From the NCBI RefSeq assembly GCF_003018255.1, contig NZ_CP027440.1: 64,000 nucleotides of DNA. One strand, written 5' to 3'. Every line of letters begins with the position of its first letter. The stretch's first letter is position 1. Made by a program: the position numbers and the translations under genes. Origin of the DNA: Escherichia coli (GTDB lineage Bacteria; Pseudomonadota; Gammaproteobacteria; Enterobacterales; Enterobacteriaceae). Under the pieces are notes generated by a model. The model made no database searches and had not been told where the DNA came from. It saw nothing but the letters and a program-made list of their open reading frames with translations. Below are positions 461-14,090 of this stretch, one piece after another.

Positions 461-1095
461 AAAAATGCGTCATGAGCAGTATCGGTATTGAGAGTTTATT
501 CAGAAAGTTTGCGGGTAACCCTTATAAGCTCCATACCTATACCAGTCAGGAGTCATTTCAGGATGCCATGTCGCGGATCTCGTTTGCGGCGGTCATTTTT
601 TCTTTTTCTGCCATGAGAAGTGAGCGCAGAGAGGGATTATCTTGCCTGACTGAACTGGCGATTAAGTTTCCGCGTACCCGGCGTTTAGTTATTGCGGATG
701 ATGATATTGAAGCTCGGCTGATTGGTTCATTGTCGCCATCACCGTTGGACGGTGTATTAAGTAAAGCGTCAACGCTGGAGATTTTTCATCAGGAACTCTT
801 TTTGTCATTAAATGGTGTACGTCAGGCGACCGACCGACTGAACAATCAGTGGTACATTAATCAAAGCCGAACGCTAAGCCCGACGGAGAGAGAAATATTG
901 CGCTTTATGTCGCGTGGCTACTCAATGACACAAATTGCCGAGCAGCTTAAACGCAATATCAAAACGATCCGTGCACATAAATTTAATGTGATGTCGAAAC
1001 TGGGCGTCAGTTCTGATGCAGGGTTGTTGGAGGCCGCAGATATTCTGTTATGTATGCGGCATTGCGAAGCAAGTAATGTGTTGCATCCCTATTAA
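418..1095 (+). CDS. bglJ: LuxR-family transcriptional activator BglJ
   Basis: 225-aa ORF with C-terminal LuxR HTH; overlaps yjjQ 3' end; expected length and position. Confidence 0.85.
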
Positions 1096-1131
1096 TCCAC
1101 ATGATGCCGGGTTTACTTCCCCGGCAGTGCT

Positions 1132-1920
1132 TCATTTCAGCGTACAATCGCCACATTGCTGCACATCCGGTAAGCGATAACGCTGGCAGCAAGTGCGGCG
1201 CACCAGCAGGCCGTCGCGCAGTACCACGGTACGCCAGAGTGGATTATCTTCACCGTTCGTGAGCATTTTCTCAAAAAAGAGGGCATGGCGCAGCGATTCA
1301 ACCGTCGCCTCGCCAAGCAGCTGTTTCATCTCAGTCAGATACCAGTTGATCAAATAACCGGTATTGCTCCAGATAAGTTTGCCGTTGATCTCTCCCGTCG
1401 CTTCTAATGCCTGCACTACCGGAACAAGCGCCTGGCTGATTAACGTTTCCATTCGCTGCTGCGGCGAATGTAGTGTTGCGTTTTTATCTTCACACACATC
1501 GACCCAGAAACAGGCGGCGCGTCCGGTTTCGTGAAACTCAACGTGGAAATGTTCCGGCGACACATCTAATGCTTTTTCCTGCGTCAGCAGCGCCAACATT
1601 AATGGTGGCACCATCAGGCCGATATACCATTGTGCCCATAGTGAGATCAGCGGTTTGTTCTCGCGGATCATCAAGGGTTGGTTGCGGTAGATATGATCGG
1701 AATAGACCGCCAGTTGAGAACTTAGCGTATTCGGTGATGACCATTGCGCCAGCGTCATGGCACGGAGCGGTGCGGGTTCATCCAGACGGATAAACTCCAG
1801 CAAATGTTCACGATGTTCGGCGATCGTCGCCCGTACGGCTTGTGCAAGCCCAGCATCCTGCGGCTGGAGATGCGTTCGCCAGATAACATCTTCATAGAGC
1901 GGTGCGGAACGATAGGCCAT
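1132..1920 (-). CDS. fhuF: Ferric-siderophore reductase FhuF (2Fe-2S)
   Basis: 262-aa ORF, C-terminal Cys cluster (C-C-x-Y...C-x-x-C); expected length and synteny. Confidence 0.9.
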   Translation of the reverse strand: MAYRSAPLYEDVIWRTHLQPQDAGLAQAVRATIAEHREHLLEFIRLDEPAPLRAMTLAQWSSPNTLSSQLAVYSDHIYRNQPLMIRENKPLISLWAQWYIGLMVPPLMLALLTQEKALDVSPEHFHVEFHETGRAACFWVDVCEDKNATLHSPQQRMETLISQALVPVVQALEATGEINGKLIWSNTGYLINWYLTEMKQLLGEATVESLRHALFFEKMLTNGEDNPLWRTVVLRDGLLVRRTCCQRYRLPDVQQCGDCTLK

Positions 1921-1932
1921 AATCGTGATAGT

Positions 1933-1956
1933 AATCTAAATGATAATGATTGCTAA
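1933..1956. promoter_or_regulatory. Candidate Fur box upstream of fhuF
   Basis: aaatgataatgattgc matches the GATAATGATAATCATTATC Fur consensus core, directly upstream of the fhuF start. Confidence 0.45.
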
Positions 1957-2060
1957 TCCTAGCGATAGGTTTACCCGATAGCAAGGGATTTCTCTGGCTT
2001 GCAAATGATAAAGATTATCATATGATATTGGTTATCATTATCAATGAAAGAGATGAAACC

Positions 2061-2297
2061 ATGTTGCAACGTACGCTGGGCAGTGGCTGGGGAGTGTTGC
2101 TGCCGGGATTGCTGATTGCAGGGCTGATGTATGCGGATTTATCGCCGGATCAATGGCGGATTATCATTCTGATGGGATTAGTATTGACGCCGGCGATGCT
2201 GTATCACAAACAGTTGCGGCATTACGTTTTGCTGCCATCGTGCCTGGCGCTTATTGCTGGCATCATGCTGATGATAATGAATTTGAAGCAGGGATGA
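2061..2297 (+). CDS. yjjZ: Small hydrophobic membrane protein YjjZ
   Basis: 78-aa ORF from internal ATG of the 115-aa track ORF; expected position between fhuF and the tRNA-Leu cluster. Confidence 0.55.
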   Translation: MLQRTLGSGWGVLLPGLLIAGLMYADLSPDQWRIIILMGLVLTPAMLYHKQLRHYVLLPSCLALIAGIMLMIMNLKQG

Positions 2298-2336
2298 TAA
2301 AACAGGGAAGAAACAAGAAAGGAAGTAAAGATAATT

Positions 2337-2423
2337 GGTGCGAGGGGGGGGACTTGAACCCCCACGTCCGTAAGGACACTAACACCTGAAGCTAGCGCGT
2401 CTACCAATTCCGCCACCTTCGCA
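2337..2423 (-). tRNA. leuQ: tRNA-Leu (CAG), copy 1 of 3
   Basis: 87-nt reverse complement of the E. coli tRNA-Leu1 sequence including encoded CCA; anticodon CAG. Confidence 0.93.
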
Positions 2424-2457
2424 CAGTCATCTTACTTTTTTTGATATTGCCTCGTTT

Positions 2458-2544
2458 GGTGCGAGGGGGGGGACTTGAACCCCCACGTCCGTAAGAACAC
2501 TAACACCTGAAGCTAGCGCGTCTACCAATTCCGCCACCTTCGCC
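2458..2544 (-). tRNA. leuP: tRNA-Leu (CAG), copy 2 of 3, one substitution in the variable arm relative to copies 1 and 3
   Basis: Same 87-nt tRNA sequence; differs at position 2497 (a instead of g on the + strand). Confidence 0.9.
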
Positions 2545-2572
2545 CAGTGCGAGCAATATCAACGTGGTTTTT

Positions 2573-2659
2573 GGTGCGAGGGGGGGGACTTGAACCCCCA
2601 CGTCCGTAAGGACACTAACACCTGAAGCTAGCGCGTCTACCAATTCCGCCACCTTCGCA
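2573..2659 (-). tRNA. leuV: tRNA-Leu (CAG), copy 3 of 3
   Basis: Identical to copy 1; tandem array with short spacers. Confidence 0.93.
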
Positions 2660-2857
2660 TACCGTCAATTCTTAAAAAGAATTGCTACCACGGAGGCGCA
2701 TTCTAGTGGTTTTCAGCTTTTCGTCAATAGTTAATTATCGACAGAGGTGTAATTGCTGGAAAAATGTCCATCAGCGGATTGTGGATAATTCGTTTGTCGG
2801 TCAGATAAGGCGTGTACGCCGCATCCGACACGGTATGCGGCGATATATATCAGATAC

Positions 2858-3889
2858 TCAACCTTTCTTCGCCTGGCGGGTCATAATGGCGCGATACACC
2901 TTGAAGCGCCCGGTTTGCGCGATCACTTCGTGGAAGCCAAATGTCTCATCCAGCACGTCCGGATAAGGCAGGAAGGCGTTCGCTACAATTCGCAGCTCGC
3001 CGCCGCTATTAAGATGACGCACCGCGCCGCGAATCAGCGTTTGCGCGGCATCCAGGCTGGTTTGCATCCCATCGTGGAACGGCGGGTTGGAGATGATCAT
3101 ATCAAAACGACCTTTCACCTCGGAAAAGACGTTACTGGCAAAGACTTCACCTTCAACACCGTTGGCCGCAAGTGTTGCGCGGCTGGCTTCTACCGCTGGT
3201 GCAGAGACATCGCACAGAGTGAGACGAATTTTCGGCGAATGGCGCGCAAAGGCAACCGAAAGTACGCCCGCGCCACAGCCGACATCCAGCACTTTACCTT
3301 TCGTGTGCGGGGTTAACGTCGAGAGCAGCAACTGGCTACCGACATCCAGACCGTCGCGGCTAAACACGCCAGGCAGCGTTTTGACCGTCAGGCCATCGAC
3401 GCTGTATTCGCCCCAGAATTTATCGGCATCAAATACTGGCTGTTTTTCCAGACGACCAAAATAGAGGCCACAGCGACGAGCGCTGTCCATTTTATTCAAC
3501 GGCGCATAATCTGACAGCATCTGCTCGGCGCTGCGCACGCCGCTGCGGTTCTCGCCAACGACAAAAATATCCGTGCCCACTGGCAGCAGAGAAAGTAAAT
3601 TCATCAACTGGAACTGGGCTTCCGGTTTGTTCTTCGGCCAGTAGTAAATCAGCGTATCGCAATCTGCGACATCATCCGCCGTGGCGACCAGACTAAAACG
3701 GGCGTTATCCCCCATCTGGCGGCTTAACACCTGCCAGTGGTGGAATTGCTGGGTATGAGCACGGCTGGCCGCGGTATCTAAACGCGCGGGCAGGTCATCC
3801 TGTAAGTCTCCGGCAAAAAGAATACGGCTTTGTTCGAAATCATCACTGTGACGCAGCAAGACTTCACTTGCCGGGGTAAATGCAGACAT
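2858..3889 (-). CDS. rsmC: 16S rRNA (guanine1207-N2)-methyltransferase RsmC
   Basis: 343-aa ORF with SAM-binding motif ([11 protein letters not shown]) and NPPFH catalytic motif; synteny. Confidence 0.9.
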
Positions 3890-3991
3890 GGAATGCTCCT
3901 CAATTAATACTGGCGGCGATTATAGCCATATGTTGGCGCGGTATCGACGAATTTGCTATATTTGCGCCCCTGACAACAGGAGCGATTCGCT

Positions 3992-4405
3992 ATGACATCC
4001 CGACGAGACTGGCAGTTACAGCAACTGGGCATTACCCAGTGGTCGCTGCGTCGCCCTGGCGCGTTGCAGGGGGAGATTGCCATTGCGATCCCGGCACACG
4101 TCCGTCTGGTGATGGTGGCAAACGATCTTCCCGCCCTGACCGATCCTATAGTGAGCGATGTTCTGCGCGCGTTAACCGTCAGCCCCGATCAAGTGCTGCA
4201 ACTGACGCCAGAAAAAATCGCGATGCTGCCGCAAGGCAGTCGCTGCAACAGCTGGCGGTTGGGTACTGACGAACCGCTATCACTGGAAGGCGCTCAGGTG
4301 GCATCACCGGCGCTCACCGAATTACGGGCAAACCCAACGGCACGCGCCGCGTTATGGCAACAAATTTGCACATATGAACACGATTTCTTCCCTCGAAACG
4401 ACTGA
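3992..4405 (+). CDS. holD: DNA polymerase III subunit psi
   Basis: 137-aa ORF, expected length; 3' end overlaps rimI as in E. coli. Confidence 0.88.
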   Translation: MTSRRDWQLQQLGITQWSLRRPGALQGEIAIAIPAHVRLVMVANDLPALTDPIVSDVLRALTVSPDQVLQLTPEKIAMLPQGSRCNSWRLGTDEPLSLEGAQVASPALTELRANPTARAALWQQICTYEHDFFPRND

Positions 4406-9674: not shown

Positions 9675-10450
9675 TTTGCCGTTTTATCGACACCCACTGC
9701 CATTTTGATTTCCCGCCTTTTAGTGGTGATGAAGAGGCCAGCCTGCAACGCGCGGCACAAGCGGGCGTAGGCAAGATCATTGTTCCGGCGACAGAGGCGG
9801 AAAATTTTGCCCGCGTGCAGGCGTTAGCGGAAAAATATCAACCGCTGTATGCCGCATTGGGCTTGCATCCTGGTATGTTGAAAAAACATAGCGATGTGTC
9901 TCTTGATCAGCTACAGCAGGCGCTGGAAAGGCGTCCGGCGAAGGTGGTGGCGGTGGGGGAGATCGGTCTGGATCTCTTCGGCGACGATCCGCAATTTGAG
10001 AGGCAGCAGTGGTTACTCGACGAACAACTGAAACTGGCGAAACGCTACGATCTGCCGGTGATCCTGCATTCACGGCGCACACACGACAAACTGGCGATGC
10101 ATCTTAAACGCCACGATTTGCCACGCACTGGCGTGGTTCACGGTTTTTCCGGCAGCCTGCAACAGGCCGAAAGGTTTGTACTGCTGGGCTACAAAATCGG
10201 CGTAGGCGGTACTATCACCTATCCACGCGCCAGTAAAACCCGCGATGTCATCGCAAAATTACCGCTGGCATCGTTGTTGCTGGAAACCGACGCGCCGGAT
10301 ATGCCGCTCAACGGCTTTCAGGGGCAGCCTAACCGCCCGGAACAGGCTGCGCGGGTGTTTGACGTACTTTGCGAGTTACGCCCGGAACCAGAAGATGAGA
10401 TTGCCGAAGTGTTGCTAAATAATACGTATACGTTGTTTAACGTGCCGTAG
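9671..10450 (+). CDS. yjjV: TatD-family metal-dependent hydrolase/DNase YjjV
   Basis: 259-aa ORF; N-terminal DTHCH metal-binding motif typical of the TatD family; start overlaps yjjU stop. Confidence 0.85.
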   Translation: MICRFIDTHCHFDFPPFSGDEEASLQRAAQAGVGKIIVPATEAENFARVQALAEKYQPLYAALGLHPGMLKKHSDVSLDQLQQALERRPAKVVAVGEIGLDLFGDDPQFERQQWLLDEQLKLAKRYDLPVILHSRRTHDKLAMHLKRHDLPRTGVVHGFSGSLQQAERFVLLGYKIGVGGTITYPRASKTRDVIAKLPLASLLLETDAPDMPLNGFQGQPNRPEQAARVFDVLCELRPEPEDEIAEVLLNNTYTLFNVP

Positions 10451-10670
10451 GCCGGATAAGGCGTTCACGCCGCATCCGGCAGTTGGCGCACAATGCCTGA
10501 TGCGACGCTTGACGCGTCTTATCATGCCTACAAGTCTGTGCCGAACCGTAGGCCGGATAAGGCGTTCACGCCGCATCCGGCAGCTGGCGCACAATGCCTG
10601 ATGCGACGCTTGACGCATCTTATCATGCCTACAGGTCTGTGCCGATCCGTAGGCCGTATCCGGCATGTCA
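10448..10670. repeat. BIME/REP-type intergenic repeat: about 101-bp unit in two tandem copies plus a partial third
   Basis: Unit taggccggataaggcgttcacgccgcatccggcag...gtctgtgccgaaccg recurs at about 10448 and 10549, with a partial copy at about 10649; contains the REP palindrome gccggataaggcgttcacgccgcatccggc. Confidence 0.75.
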
Positions 10671-11531
10671 CAAATATAGCGCCGGAAATATTAACCGGCT
10701 CACCCCGCGCTCCCATAACGCATCAGCCAGTTGTTCCACATCCTCCGGCGTGGCGCTCGGCCAGCTTTGCGCCTCGCCATACACGCCGTGGGCATGAAAC
10801 GCGTTCAGGCGTACCGGAACATCGCCAAGTCCCTTGATTAACGCCGCCAGTTCTTCGATGTGTTGCAAATAATCCACCTGGCCAGGGATTACCAGCAAAC
10901 GCAGTTCCGCCAGCTTACCGCGCTCTGCCAGCAAACAGATGCTGCGCTTGATCTGCTGATTATCGCGTCCGGTTAATTGCTGATGACATTCGCTCCCCCA
11001 CGCTTTGAGATCGAGCATTGCGCCGTCGCACACCGGAAGCAATTTTTCCCAGCCGGTTTCGCTCAACATGCCATTACTGTCCACCAGACAGGTGAGGTGG
11101 CGCAGTTGCGGATCGTTTTTGATAGCAGTAAACAGCGCCACCACAAACGGTAGCTGGGTCGTGGCTTCGCCGCCGCTTACCGTTATCCCTTCGATAAACA
11201 GCACTGCTTTGCGGATATGGCTAAGCACCTCATCCACGCTCATGGACTGCGCCATTGGCGTGGCATGTTGCGGACACATCTTCAGGCAGGTATCACATTG
11301 CTCGCAGACCACAGCGTTCCACACCACTTTGCCGTCGACAATCTGCAACGCCTGATGCGGACACTGCGGCACGCACTCTCCGCAATCATTACAGCGCCCC
11401 ATCGTCCACGGATTGTGACAGTTTTTGCAGCGCAGATTGCAGCCCTGCAAAAACAGAGCCAGACGACTGCCTGGCCCGTCAACGCAGGAGAAGGGGATAA
11501 TCTTACTGACTAAAGCGCATCTGCTGTTCAT
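10668..11531 (-). CDS. yjjW: Glycyl-radical enzyme activating protein (radical SAM, with ferredoxin-like Cys clusters) YjjW
   Basis: 287-aa ORF; several CxxCxxC-type cysteine clusters; co-directional with and overlapping yjjI. Confidence 0.85.
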
Positions 11532-13053
11532 GGCTTATCACGCGCGGCTGGCGTTCCAGAATACGAGTGTTGCGTGCGGCTTCTTCTCCCAGCCAGGTGG
11601 TGTTGGTGCGTGAACCTTCGGCGCGATATTTTTCTAAATCCGACAAACGCACCATATAACCGGTAACGCGAACCAGATCGTTACCGCTGACATTGGCGGT
11701 AAATTCACGCATTCCGGCTTTAAAGGCACCGAGGCAAAGCTGTACCAGCGCCTGCGGATTACGTTTGATGGTTTCGTCGAGCGTCAGAATGTCGCTGATG
11801 CCGGAATAATAATAAGCATGATGCGGGGCGACAGTTTGCAGATGGGTAATCGGATCTGGCTCATCACCATACGGCAAGCGTGCGCCAGGCGTGGTGCCGA
11901 TATCGGAACTGATCCCCGACTGTGCGTGTAGCATGGCGCGTTTTTGCCAGCCATATTTCACGGGGGTATTGGCGACAAACTCCGCCAGTTGTGCGCTGAT
12001 GCGATAACCCACTTCATTTGCGGCGGCTTCTTTACCGTAGCGCGCGGCAATCCCTTCTTTCTCACACAGCAAGTTAACTGCTTCCGCCAATCCGTACATG
12101 CCAAACATTGGCACAAAACGTTCAGGGTTAATCAGCCCTTCTTTCACCAGGAAGCTATTCTCAAAGAAGTGTGATTGTTGATAGAGGAATTCACACCGCG
12201 CATCGATGATGGCGATCTGCTGCTGGCAGTAGTGCGGTAGAGTGCGTGTAAAGAAGTCATCCAGCGATTCACTGCGCTCGGCAATGGCTTTCAGGTTAAG
12301 GCGTACCAGCGTGCTGCCACCACCCGCCAGCGGCAGTGAGTTGTAACAGCTCACAATCCCGTAGCCCCCTTTTGTGAAAATTTTATCATGCACCGGACCG
12401 TTGGCGATGTGCGGTTTGCTACATTCACAGAGGTTCTTCGCCACTTCCAGCAGTAGGTCATCAGGGGTGATTTCAGGATCGTAGATAAAGGTCAGGTTCG
12501 GTGAAACCTGCTTCAACTCTGCGTCTGCACGTAAGATCGCGCGGGTAATGGGCGAATCAGACGGGCCGATATTGGCGTGCATAAAGGCGTCTGGCAGGGT
12601 TCTGTCGAGGTAACGCCAGAAACGTTTTATTCGAATATCGATCTCGTCTTGTGTTAGAATTCTAACATACGGTTGCAACAACGCATCCAGTTGCCCCAGG
12701 TAGACCGGCATCGATGTGACCGATGGTACGTGGTGGTAAAGAATGGTCAGCAGAGAGAGTGCATCATCAAGATCTTTCGCGCCTTCCAGCTCCAGCCATT
12801 CGGAACCGTTCGCCAGAAAACGGGCGTAATCGGGTAAGACATAGCGCGGTTTGTACGGCGCATGACCTTCAAACATATCGCAGATTACACCTTCATCCAG
12901 CGCGCGGCGGGCTTCGGCAGGAAGCTGTGGGTAAGGCAGATTGTTTTCTGCTTCCAGTGCCAGAAAATGGCGCTTCTGCTCCGGGCTAAGTACCGGGCTG
13001 GTGACAATTTGCTGGCAACGTTGTTGCAGTGCATTTTCATGAGAAGTGGGCAT
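11503..13053 (-). CDS. yjjI: Uncharacterised glycyl-radical-enzyme-like protein YjjI
   Basis: 516-aa ORF at the expected position upstream of deoC; family assignment from memory of the E. coli yjjI-yjjW pair. Confidence 0.8.
12373..12388. promoter_or_regulatory. Candidate DeoR operator OE (imperfect palindrome)
   Basis: tgtgaaaattttatca lies 279 bp upstream of the O1 palindrome, matching the known deo operator spacing. Confidence 0.4.
12652..12667. promoter_or_regulatory. DeoR operator O1 (deo P1), embedded in the yjjI coding sequence
   Basis: Perfect 16-bp palindrome tgttagaattctaaca; 599 bp upstream of the second palindrome. Confidence 0.7.
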
Positions 13054-13250
13054 CTTCTTTTCCTTTTATGCCGAAGGTGATGCGCCATTGTAAGAAGTTT
13101 CGTGATGTTCACTTTGATCCTGATGCGTTTGCCACCACTGACGCATTCATTTGAAAGTGAATTATTTGAACCAGATCGCATTACAGTGATGCAAACTTGT
13201 AAGTAGATTTCCTTAATTGTGATGTATATCGAAGTGTGTTGCGGAGTAGA

Positions 13251-13266
13251 TGTTAGAATACTAACA
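13251..13266. promoter_or_regulatory. DeoR operator O2 (deo P2)
   Basis: tgttagaatactaaca 45 bp upstream of the deoC start; preceded by CRP/CytR-like tgtga motifs. Confidence 0.7.
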
Positions 13267-13310
13267 AACTCGCAAGGTGAATTTTATTGGCGACAAGCCA
13301 GGAGAATGAA

Positions 13311-14090
13311 ATGACTGATCTGAAAGCAAGCAGCCTGCGTGCACTGAAATTGATGGACCTGACCACCCTGAATGACGACGACACCGACGAGAAAGTAATT
13401 GCTCTGTGTCATCAGGCCAAAACTCCGGTCGGCAATACCGCCGCTATCTGTATCTATCCTCGCTTTATCCCAATTGCTCGCAAAACGCTGAAAGAGCAGG
13501 GTACCCCGGAAATCCGTATCGCTACGGTAACCAACTTCCCACACGGTAACGACGACATCGAAATCGCGCTGGCAGAAACCCGTGCGGCAATCGCCTACGG
13601 TGCTGATGAAGTTGACGTTGTGTTCCCGTACCGCGCGCTGATGGCGGGTAACGAGCAGGTTGGTTTTGACCTGGTGAAAGCCTGTAAAGAGGCTTGCGCG
13701 GCAGCGAATGTACTGCTGAAAGTGATCATCGAAACCGGCGAACTAAAAGACGAAGCGCTGATCCGTAAAGCGTCTGAAATCTCCATCAAAGCGGGTGCGG
13801 ACTTCATCAAAACCTCTACCGGTAAAGTGGCTGTGAACGCGACGCCGGAAAGCGCGCGCATCATGATGGAAGTGATCCGTGATATGGGCGTAGAAAAAAC
13901 CGTTGGTTTCAAACCGGCGGGCGGCGTGCGTACTGCGGAAGATGCGCAGAAATATCTCGCCATCGCCGATGAACTGTTCGGTGCTGACTGGGCTGATGCG
14001 CGTCACTACCGCTTTGGTGCTTCCAGCCTGCTGGCAAGCCTGCTGAAAGCTCTGGGCCACGGCGACGGTAAGAGCGCCAGCAGCTACTAA
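13311..14090 (+). CDS. deoC: Deoxyribose-phosphate aldolase
   Basis: 259-aa product ([24 protein letters not shown]...) from internal ATG of the 267-aa track ORF. Confidence 0.93.

Follow-up and report, generated by a model that had tools for sequence, protein, structure and literature searches.

DeoR operator sequences and the promoter deoP1 within the coding sequence of yjjI, a glycyl radical enzyme gene of Escherichia coli

Introduction

How can one stretch of DNA serve both as the reading frame of an enzyme and as the control region of the neighbouring operon? The question is raised by the gene pair yjjI-yjjW of Escherichia coli, examined here in a stretch of 64,000 nucleotides from contig NZ_CP027440.1 (RefSeq assembly GCF_003018255.1; hereafter the window, to which positions refer). 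A first-pass annotation, made from the sequence alone, described yjjI (516 aa) and yjjW (287 aa) as a cryptic, overlapping pair of a glycyl radical enzyme and a cysteine-cluster-rich activase, transcribed divergently from deoCABD. It placed one operator of the repressor DeoR (O1) and a candidate for another (OE) inside yjjI, so that the same DNA would be under both coding and regulatory constraint. It also named two findings that would overturn it: a YjjI that lacks a conserved glycyl-radical motif, and palindromes that do not align to the mapped DeoR operators. The ends and lengths given for the two genes agree exactly with the list of open reading frames (ORFs) and with RefSeq, and deoC (plus strand, start at 13311) faces away from the enzyme pair on the minus strand across an intergenic space of 257 bp.

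No component of the locus is new: TIGRFAM and Pfam have curated families for YjjI and YjjW, DeoR operators have been known since the 1980s, and control by FNR comes from genome-wide studies. The overlap of the operators with yjjI is likewise implicit in genome annotation. What I add is a quantitative comparison across species in which a second layer of selection on yjjI, imposed by the operators and by deoP1, becomes visible, together with a prediction for the yjjI promoter and a fold-level placement of YjjI nearest the class III ribonucleotide reductase NrdD.

Results

The operators and their place in the reading frame

The DeoR palindromes have been quoted as TGTTAGAA-TTCTAACA and TGTTAGAA-TACTAACA (PMC5326754), deoP1 and deoP2 are published as lying 599 bp apart (PMC3334521), and a third DeoR site is placed about 300 bp further upstream (PMC8053113); binding of DeoR to the deo operators, and looping between them, are results from the literature. 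In the window, a palindrome of the form TGTTAGAA-T(T/A)CTAACA covers the -10 elements of both deoP1 and deoP2. The two copies, O1 and O2, have the published sequences and are 599 bp apart, so that the palindromes do align to the mapped operators. When all 16-mers matching O1 with up to three mismatches were collected, two were observed as against 0.18 in shuffled sequence. A third site falls where one about 280-300 bp upstream of O1 would be expected, at 12373-12388 (OE), 279 bp away. Either half of an operator, TGTTAGAAT, can be read as an extended -10 element.

Both intragenic sites lie in the yjjI frame as the first-pass annotation had it, on codons 129-134 (O1) and 222-227 (OE). O1 takes up the third base of Y129 followed by V130, R131, I132, L133 and T134 (TAT GTT AGA ATT CTA ACA), and OE the third base of H222 followed by D223, K224, I225, F226 and T227 (CAT GAT AAA ATT TTC ACA). 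An A+T-rich conserved stretch just upstream of the deoP1 -10 element, on codons 139-147, is likely to be the -35/UP region of that promoter, judging by its position and conservation. At deoP2 the two CRP sites are presumably centred at -40.5 and -93.5 (site 2 being the latter), which puts the deoP2 start near 13266 and, by analogy, the deoP1 start near 12667. deoP1 as a whole is embedded in the gene, so that RNA made from it runs antisense to ~390 nt at the start of the yjjI coding sequence, as well as to the predicted 5' leader.

Coding and regulatory constraint at the codon level

Does yjjI carry the imprint of these sites? To this end orthologous loci at the species level, 80 in all and spanning Escherichia to Proteus, were fetched. 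In 75 of them, Hafnia and Edwardsiella among these, deoC is the divergent upstream neighbour of yjjI; two loci (L012 and L062) are too short upstream, and the three from Proteus (L078-L080) have no adjacent deoC. The yjjI ORF is full-length and intact in all 80, with protein identities of 71-99%. Entropies at its first, second and third codon positions are 0.31, 0.21 and 1.15, and thus the YjjI protein is under strong purifying selection.

All 511 six-codon windows of yjjI were ranked by third-position entropy (H3) over the 78 sequences scored as deoC-adjacent. Against a gene mean of 1.15 (sd 0.28), the O1 window ranks first (0.045) and the OE window second (0.109), followed by codons 508-513 in the yjjI/yjjW overlap (0.22) and codons 141-146, upstream of the deoP1 -10 element (0.283). 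The same picture emerges codon by codon. Only 10 of 268 codons with at least threefold degeneracy use one and the same codon in at least 97% of species, and of these ten, five fall in O1, two in OE, one in the region upstream of deoP1 and two in the yjjI/yjjW overlap. In lineages with deoC adjacent, the O1 codons are near-invariant down to the third base while a neighbouring proline codon uses all four synonyms, and the OE codons are likewise near-invariant despite hypervariable flanking residues. Two of the codons frozen in O1 are rare: AGA (2 of 33 arginine codons) and CTA (4 of 57 leucine codons). The dual coding and regulatory constraint proposed from the sequence alone is therefore borne out directly by comparison at the codon level, since O1 and OE show the least synonymous variation in yjjI.

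Where deoC is not adjacent, both codons and residues differ. Proteus reads Y-V-G-(E/N/S)-L-T at O1 and Q-D-A-V-F-G at OE, and even Hafnia and Edwardsiella have GGA where E. coli O1 has AGA. Both sites lie at helix-to-loop junctions, beside columns of the family alignment that are prone to insertion and deletion (as seen in the alignment and a structural model). Evidently the operator was built into a pre-existing loop partly by amino-acid replacements, to go by these sequences.

The geometry of the sites is conserved as well. O1 and OE are 279 bp apart in all 75 measurable loci, and across 75 species O1 has 7 distinct variants (the commonest at 71%) and OE 5 (84%), as against 15 for O2 (32%); the intragenic operators are thus more conserved than the intergenic one. 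The distance from O1 to O2 (loci L001-L077) is 596-604 bp in most species, with further classes at 589-592, 567-568, 612, 626 and 675 bp. Several of these steps are near whole helical turns, suggestive of loop phasing; the main class itself spreads over 9 bp, and 626 and 675 are outliers.

YjjI as a glycyl radical enzyme

What kind of protein bears this burden? YjjI scores 786.8 bits against TIGR04040 (cut-off 498.3) and 731.3 bits against PF11230 (cut-off 23), and these, its own families, are its sole matches among curated families. The family is small: a search of 1.84 billion representative proteins gave only 541 relatives (clusters at 50% identity), many of them fragments. An alignment of 21 members (29-57% identity) leaves G83, G120, D123, L174, C236, E305, G418, R462 and G465 invariant, C236 being the only invariant cysteine. 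The glycyl-radical motif on which the first-pass annotation had staked its reading is therefore present, as a conserved RVTGY fingerprint accompanied by a single conserved cysteine.

A search of the Protein Data Bank (PDB) with YjjI alone returned no meaningful chain (E about 1), but the family profile pairs its 'ivSCyns' with 'IACCVSS' of pyruvate formate-lyase (PFL) and 'IGCIET' of YbiW (E 2e-4 to 4e-4). Since the profile aligns with these cysteine loops, C236 is likely to be the thiyl-radical residue. An AlphaFold model built from the 21-member alignment is of high confidence (predicted local distance difference test, pLDDT, 91; predicted template-modelling score, pTM, 0.91) and appears to have the ten-stranded alpha/beta barrel of glycyl radical enzymes. 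Its best PDB match in a fold search is a class III ribonucleotide reductase (8p2s_B, E 3e-17, TMq 0.77), and every one of the 50 best matches listed is a glycyl radical enzyme (E 3e-17 to 2e-11), among them NrdD, PFL, dehydratases and benzylsuccinate synthase. Taken by its family model, an RVxG[FWY] motif, a cysteine loop, its fold and an adjacent activase, YjjI is a member of the glycyl radical enzyme superfamily.

The nearest relative by fold is NrdD, with which YjjI shares a C-terminal glycyl radical loop, a central cysteine loop and a dedicated activase of the radical S-adenosylmethionine (radical-SAM) type. Identity between the two is 13-16%, however, and YjjI has neither the C-terminal CxxC...CxxC zinc site nor the ATP-cone. 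I considered whether YjjI might itself be an NrdD. No NrdD model matches it at E <= 0.001, there is no CxxC pair in its C-terminal 100 residues and no second conserved cysteine, and so YjjI is not NrdD; the likeness is one of fold only. A distant homologue from a metagenome (P0010; L085, 942-2441) carries precomputed Pfam matches to NRDD (PF13597), faintly to a PFL-like domain (PF02901), and to YjjI-like, which lends sequence-level support to the NrdD-like placement.

With PFL-type enzymes (PflB/PflA, PflD/PflC, YbiW/YbiY, HypD, CutC/CutD) YjjI shares the RVxG[YF] motif and a cysteine loop that aligns with C419 of PFL and with GCIET of YbiW. It differs from them in being ~250-300 residues shorter, in scoring below the thresholds of PF02901 and PF01228, in having Ser-Cys where PFL has Cys-Cys, and in lacking the GCxE of the dehydratases.

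YjjW and the enzyme-activase module

YjjW scores 399.5 bits against TIGR04041 (cut-off 250.2) and comprises a Radical_SAM domain (PF04055) with a Fer4_9/Fer4_7 dicluster insert at residues 46-90. Together with the CX3CX2C motif, these profile matches agree with its description as a cysteine-cluster-rich activase. Weaker matches are to the activases of hydroxyproline dehydratase, PFL, choline lyase and others; after its own family, YjjW is nearest to the dicluster activases (T4HPD activase 141 bits, PFLE_PFLC 133 bits). The activase of NrdD, NrdG, is not known to have extra iron-sulphur (Fe-S) clusters, and in having two of them YjjW differs from it.

yjjI is paired with yjjW in 79 of the 80 species loci, the remaining one (L023) ending within yjjI, and an overlapping pair of yjjI and activase is retained in three distant homologues. 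Apart from the activase, no neighbour of the distant yjjI homologues is conserved, and these neighbourhoods thus offer no clue to the substrate. It follows from this shared, overlapping activase and the absence of any other shared neighbour that yjjI-yjjW is a self-contained module. In the Proteus loci (L078-L080, positions 500-4000) the pair stands beside smp (SMP_2), a serB-like HAD phosphatase and radA. I take the E. coli counterparts smp, serB and radA to lie just beyond the deo operon, and hence it is the deo operon that is missing between the pair and these genes in Proteus.

Expression and a predicted yjjI promoter

Is the pair cryptic? A peak of FNR at yjjI in chromatin immunoprecipitation (ChIP), with direct activation, has been published; yjjI-yjjW is listed as FNR-activated in a study of the HU regulon; anaerobiosis induces yjjI 4.3-fold and yjjW 2.1-fold in Yersinia intermedia; and the two genes cluster with nitrate-respiration genes in expression data. 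'Cryptic' therefore overstates the case for genes that are FNR-activated and anaerobically induced.

An alignment of 76 yjjI-deoC intergenic regions has the expected conserved blocks at O2 and at the two CRP sites, and two more: ATTGTA at 13087-13092 and TTTGATCC at 13111-13118, the latter conserved to at least 95%. Read on the yjjI strand, the first would be a -10 hexamer, and the second overlaps a putative FNR site; with a start near 13080, the centre of that site would lie at about -41. These blocks suggest a promoter of class II FNR type (13087-13127), which would face deoP1 over ~410 bp and, given that start, would place O1 about 413 nt and OE about 692 nt into the yjjI transcript. A search of the intergenic region for the FNR consensus with up to two mismatches found no match apart from the CRP-1 site; the proposed site has three mismatches and one conserved half. 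The left half of CRP site 2, TTTGA, is an FNR-type half-site (TTGA, not GTGA) and lies close to the FNR peak, and FNR might use this site instead of, or besides, 13114-13127. A generic promoter and terminator scan missed deoP1, deoP2 and the predicted yjjI promoter alike and did no better than on shuffled sequence.

Table 1. Positions in the window of the genes, catalytic motifs and regulatory sites discussed in the text.
Feature	Position	Strand	Basis
yjjW, radical-SAM glycyl-radical-enzyme activase, 287 aa	10668..11531	-	ORF, family models, RefSeq annotation
YjjW radical-SAM cluster motif C31-N-L-R-C35-K-N-C38 (CX3CX2C)	11418..11441	-	translation; Fer4_12 and Radical_SAM matches begin here
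yjjI 3' end / yjjW 5' end overlap, 29 nt, different frames	11503..11531	-	
yjjI, YjjI-family glycyl radical enzyme, 516 aa	11503..13053	-	ORF, PF11230, TIGR04040, fold model
Glycyl radical motif codons R462-V-T-G465-Y466	11656..11670	-	R462 and G465 invariant in 21-member alignment
Cys236 codon, candidate thiyl-radical cysteine	12346..12348	-	invariant in 21-member alignment
Candidate DeoR operator OE, TGTGAAAATTTTATCA	12373..12388	+	conserved spacing and nucleotides; third site of the literature
A+T-rich conserved stretch upstream of deoP1 -10 (likely -35/UP region), yjjI codons 139-147	12614..12637	+	nucleotide conservation, including third positions
DeoR operator O1, TGTTAGAATTCTAACA, holding the deoP1 extended -10, TGTTAGAAT	12652..12667	+	exact palindrome; published sequence
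Predicted yjjI -10 hexamer, TACAAT	13087..13092	-	conserved intergenic block; putative promoter
Predicted FNR site, TTGATCCTGATGCG	13114..13127	.	centre ~41 bp upstream of predicted yjjI start near 13080
CRP site 2 of deoP2, TTATTTGAACCAGATCGCATTA	13162..13183	+	partly conserved
CRP site 1 of deoP2, core TGTGATGTATATCGAA	13215..13236	+	conserved; CRP ChIP-seq site of exactly this sequence
DeoR operator O2 at deoP2, TGTTAGAATACTAACA	13251..13266	+	one mismatch to O1; published sequence

Other features of the locus

The 3-kb stretch 10400-13400 is present in 5,422 of 5,426 complete E. coli genomes, where the annotation always runs yjjV, yjjW, yjjI, deoC; in K-12 the set is b4378-b4381. Among 5,463 matching E. 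coli records, 11 match at 99% identity or more and 5,418 at 95-99%. Either the window comes from a less commonly sequenced lineage, or identity is lowered by the variable spacer between yjjV and yjjW. This spacer (10445-10664) holds two tandem 101-nt units of the repetitive extragenic palindromic (REP) type and the start of a third, with Rfam naRNA4 (RF02564) matches at 10450-10528 (76.6 bits) and 10551-10629 (70.9 bits). It measures 217 bp here and 419 bp in K-12, so that REP copy number varies between strains.

Two further sites lie inside yjjI. An intragenic CRP site from ChIP-seq in enterotoxigenic E. coli (ETEC) H10407 corresponds to TGTGACCGATGGTACG at 12714-12729, and so begins ~50 bp beyond the deoP1 start. 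Across species the third codon positions within it vary in the ordinary way, and thus there is no sign of selection on it. On the minus strand at 12380-12407, where OE lies, the scan gives TCGCCA-16-TAAAAT with a TG, its only promoter-like match in the region, which could be a cryptic internal promoter or a by-product of the resemblance between a DeoR half-site and a -10 element.

Discussion

Two systems on one stretch of DNA

The best explanation, and a highly probable one, is that two known systems, the yjjI-yjjW module and the deoCABD control region, share DNA. On the enzyme side, in a module that is expressed anaerobically, YjjW, a radical-SAM protein with two extra Fe-S clusters, would take a hydrogen from YjjI at Gly465; the resulting radical would move on to Cys236, which would then act on the substrate of YjjI. 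On the regulatory side, the deoCABD control region reaches ~940 bp upstream of deoC and so runs into yjjI, with deoP1/O1 and the auxiliary OE on yjjI codons and O2/deoP2 between the genes. By the published account, multimeric DeoR bridges O1, O2 and OE by DNA looping and is released by deoxyribose-5-phosphate. Since O1 and OE have to serve DeoR binding and the YjjI sequence at once, their synonymous positions are frozen, while rare codons are tolerated there and the encoded residues fall in variable surface loops of the protein.

Several points weigh against this explanation. By sequence, with four mismatches to O1, OE is at chance level (five such matches in the window, ~1.7 in shuffles); it is accepted as real because it lies 279 bp from O1 wherever the distance could be measured and is frozen at the nucleotide level. 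Occupancy of O1 and OE by DeoR is argued here from sequence and the literature, and the radical chemistry of YjjI, like the class II FNR promoter, is inferred. The predicted FNR site has one good, conserved half-site, the promoter-proximal one, and lies ~25 bp from the centre of the published ChIP peak; that centre is at ~13146, provided version-2 coordinates of MG1655 were used, which is near the proposed site and not on it. Finally, conservation was measured as column entropies over 78 related sequences rather than as tree-based synonymous rates, and the control lineage consists of three Proteus species only.

Do the embedded sites also act on yjjI itself? It is possible, if rather doubtful, that they work both ways: DeoR looped at O1 and OE would be a roadblock to yjjI transcription and deoP1 would fire head-on into the yjjI promoter some 410 bp off, and yjjI-yjjW would then answer to deoxyribose-5-phosphate besides FNR, as a hidden member of the DeoR regulon. 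Such traffic is suggested by the position of both operators downstream of the predicted yjjI start, by the convergence of deoP1 with the predicted yjjI promoter, and by the retention of the yjjI-deoC arrangement and its 279-bp spacing in every measured locus. The higher conservation of O1 and OE relative to O2 also fits, although coding and binding constraint summed would explain it equally well. However, the searchable literature mentioning yjjI holds no expression link to DeoR or nucleosides, and anaerobic induction of yjjI occurs without added nucleosides. Furthermore, Proteus and the distant homologues keep the enzyme pair without a deo neighbour, which argues that any functional link between yjjI and deo is not ancestral. 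That the overlap is itself functional, with DeoR loops over O1, OE and O2 enclosing the yjjI promoter and setting two roadblocks in the frame, derepressed deoP1 transcribing against yjjI, the enzyme gated by deoxyribose-5-phosphate and by oxygen, and YjjI, ribonucleotide-reductase-like in fold, serving in the anaerobic handling of nucleoside- or pentose-derived compounds, seems to me unlikely.

Could the frozen synonymous sites instead serve the yjjI mRNA, through hairpins or pausing at rare codons, or an internal promoter? The perfect palindrome of O1 could fold in the mRNA, AGA and CTA in O1 are rare, and OE on the yjjI strand reads TGATAAAAT, resembling an extended -10 element, where the scan flags a promoter-like site (12407-12380). 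Yet the frozen sequences are the published DeoR operators at the published spacings, the loci that lack them are just those without an adjacent deoC, and the OE palindrome is imperfect. Residues, moreover, have been replaced to suit the operator: where Proteus has Gly-x and a distant homologue (P0001) has Gly-Asp, there is now Arg/Lys-Ile. I consider a role in the mRNA or an internal promoter very improbable as the cause of the freezing. Slimmer still is the chance that yjjI is in decay or already without function and survives only as a carrier of deo regulatory DNA, since the gene's lack of a known function or phenotype, the lack of a sequence relative of YjjI in the PDB and the small size of the family stand against an ORF intact in all species loci with codon-position entropies that contradict decay, invariant catalytic Gly and Cys, regulation by FNR, and the existence of the pair without deo in other lineages.

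Relation to known regulatory systems

The deoCABD operon of E. coli is reportedly controlled by DeoR looping over three operators (O1, O2 and OE), as is said to have been worked out by Valentin-Hansen in 1986, Dandanell in 1987 and Amouyal in 1989. The elements found here are that looping system itself; the operator sequences are identical and no element differs. The location of O1, deoP1 and OE in a reading frame is not discussed in the part of the searchable literature that mentions yjjI. Auxiliary operators within coding sequence are familiar from lac O2 in lacZ, lac O3 at the end of lacI, and gal OI in galE. As in lac and gal, a multimeric repressor loops from a promoter-proximal operator to weaker auxiliary operators in a reading frame, and in all three systems coding and binding constraints are thereby superimposed. 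Unlike in lac and gal, the host gene belongs to a different, divergent and functionally unrelated operon, and a whole promoter, deoP1, is embedded besides the operators.

What does this mean for the biology of the locus? yjjI is a natural case of dual-purpose DNA: its protein-coding frame also spells out 16-base repressor sites and a promoter, with the outcome that synonymous sites are frozen, rare codons are tolerated and amino acids are changed in loops of the protein. To recode, codon-optimise or delete yjjI would be to upset the control of deo, and a deletion in the deo control region would cut yjjI short. Finally, the geometry of the locus, through a possible cross-talk between DeoR or deoP1 and yjjI-yjjW, offers one of the few concrete handles on the function of the enzyme pair.

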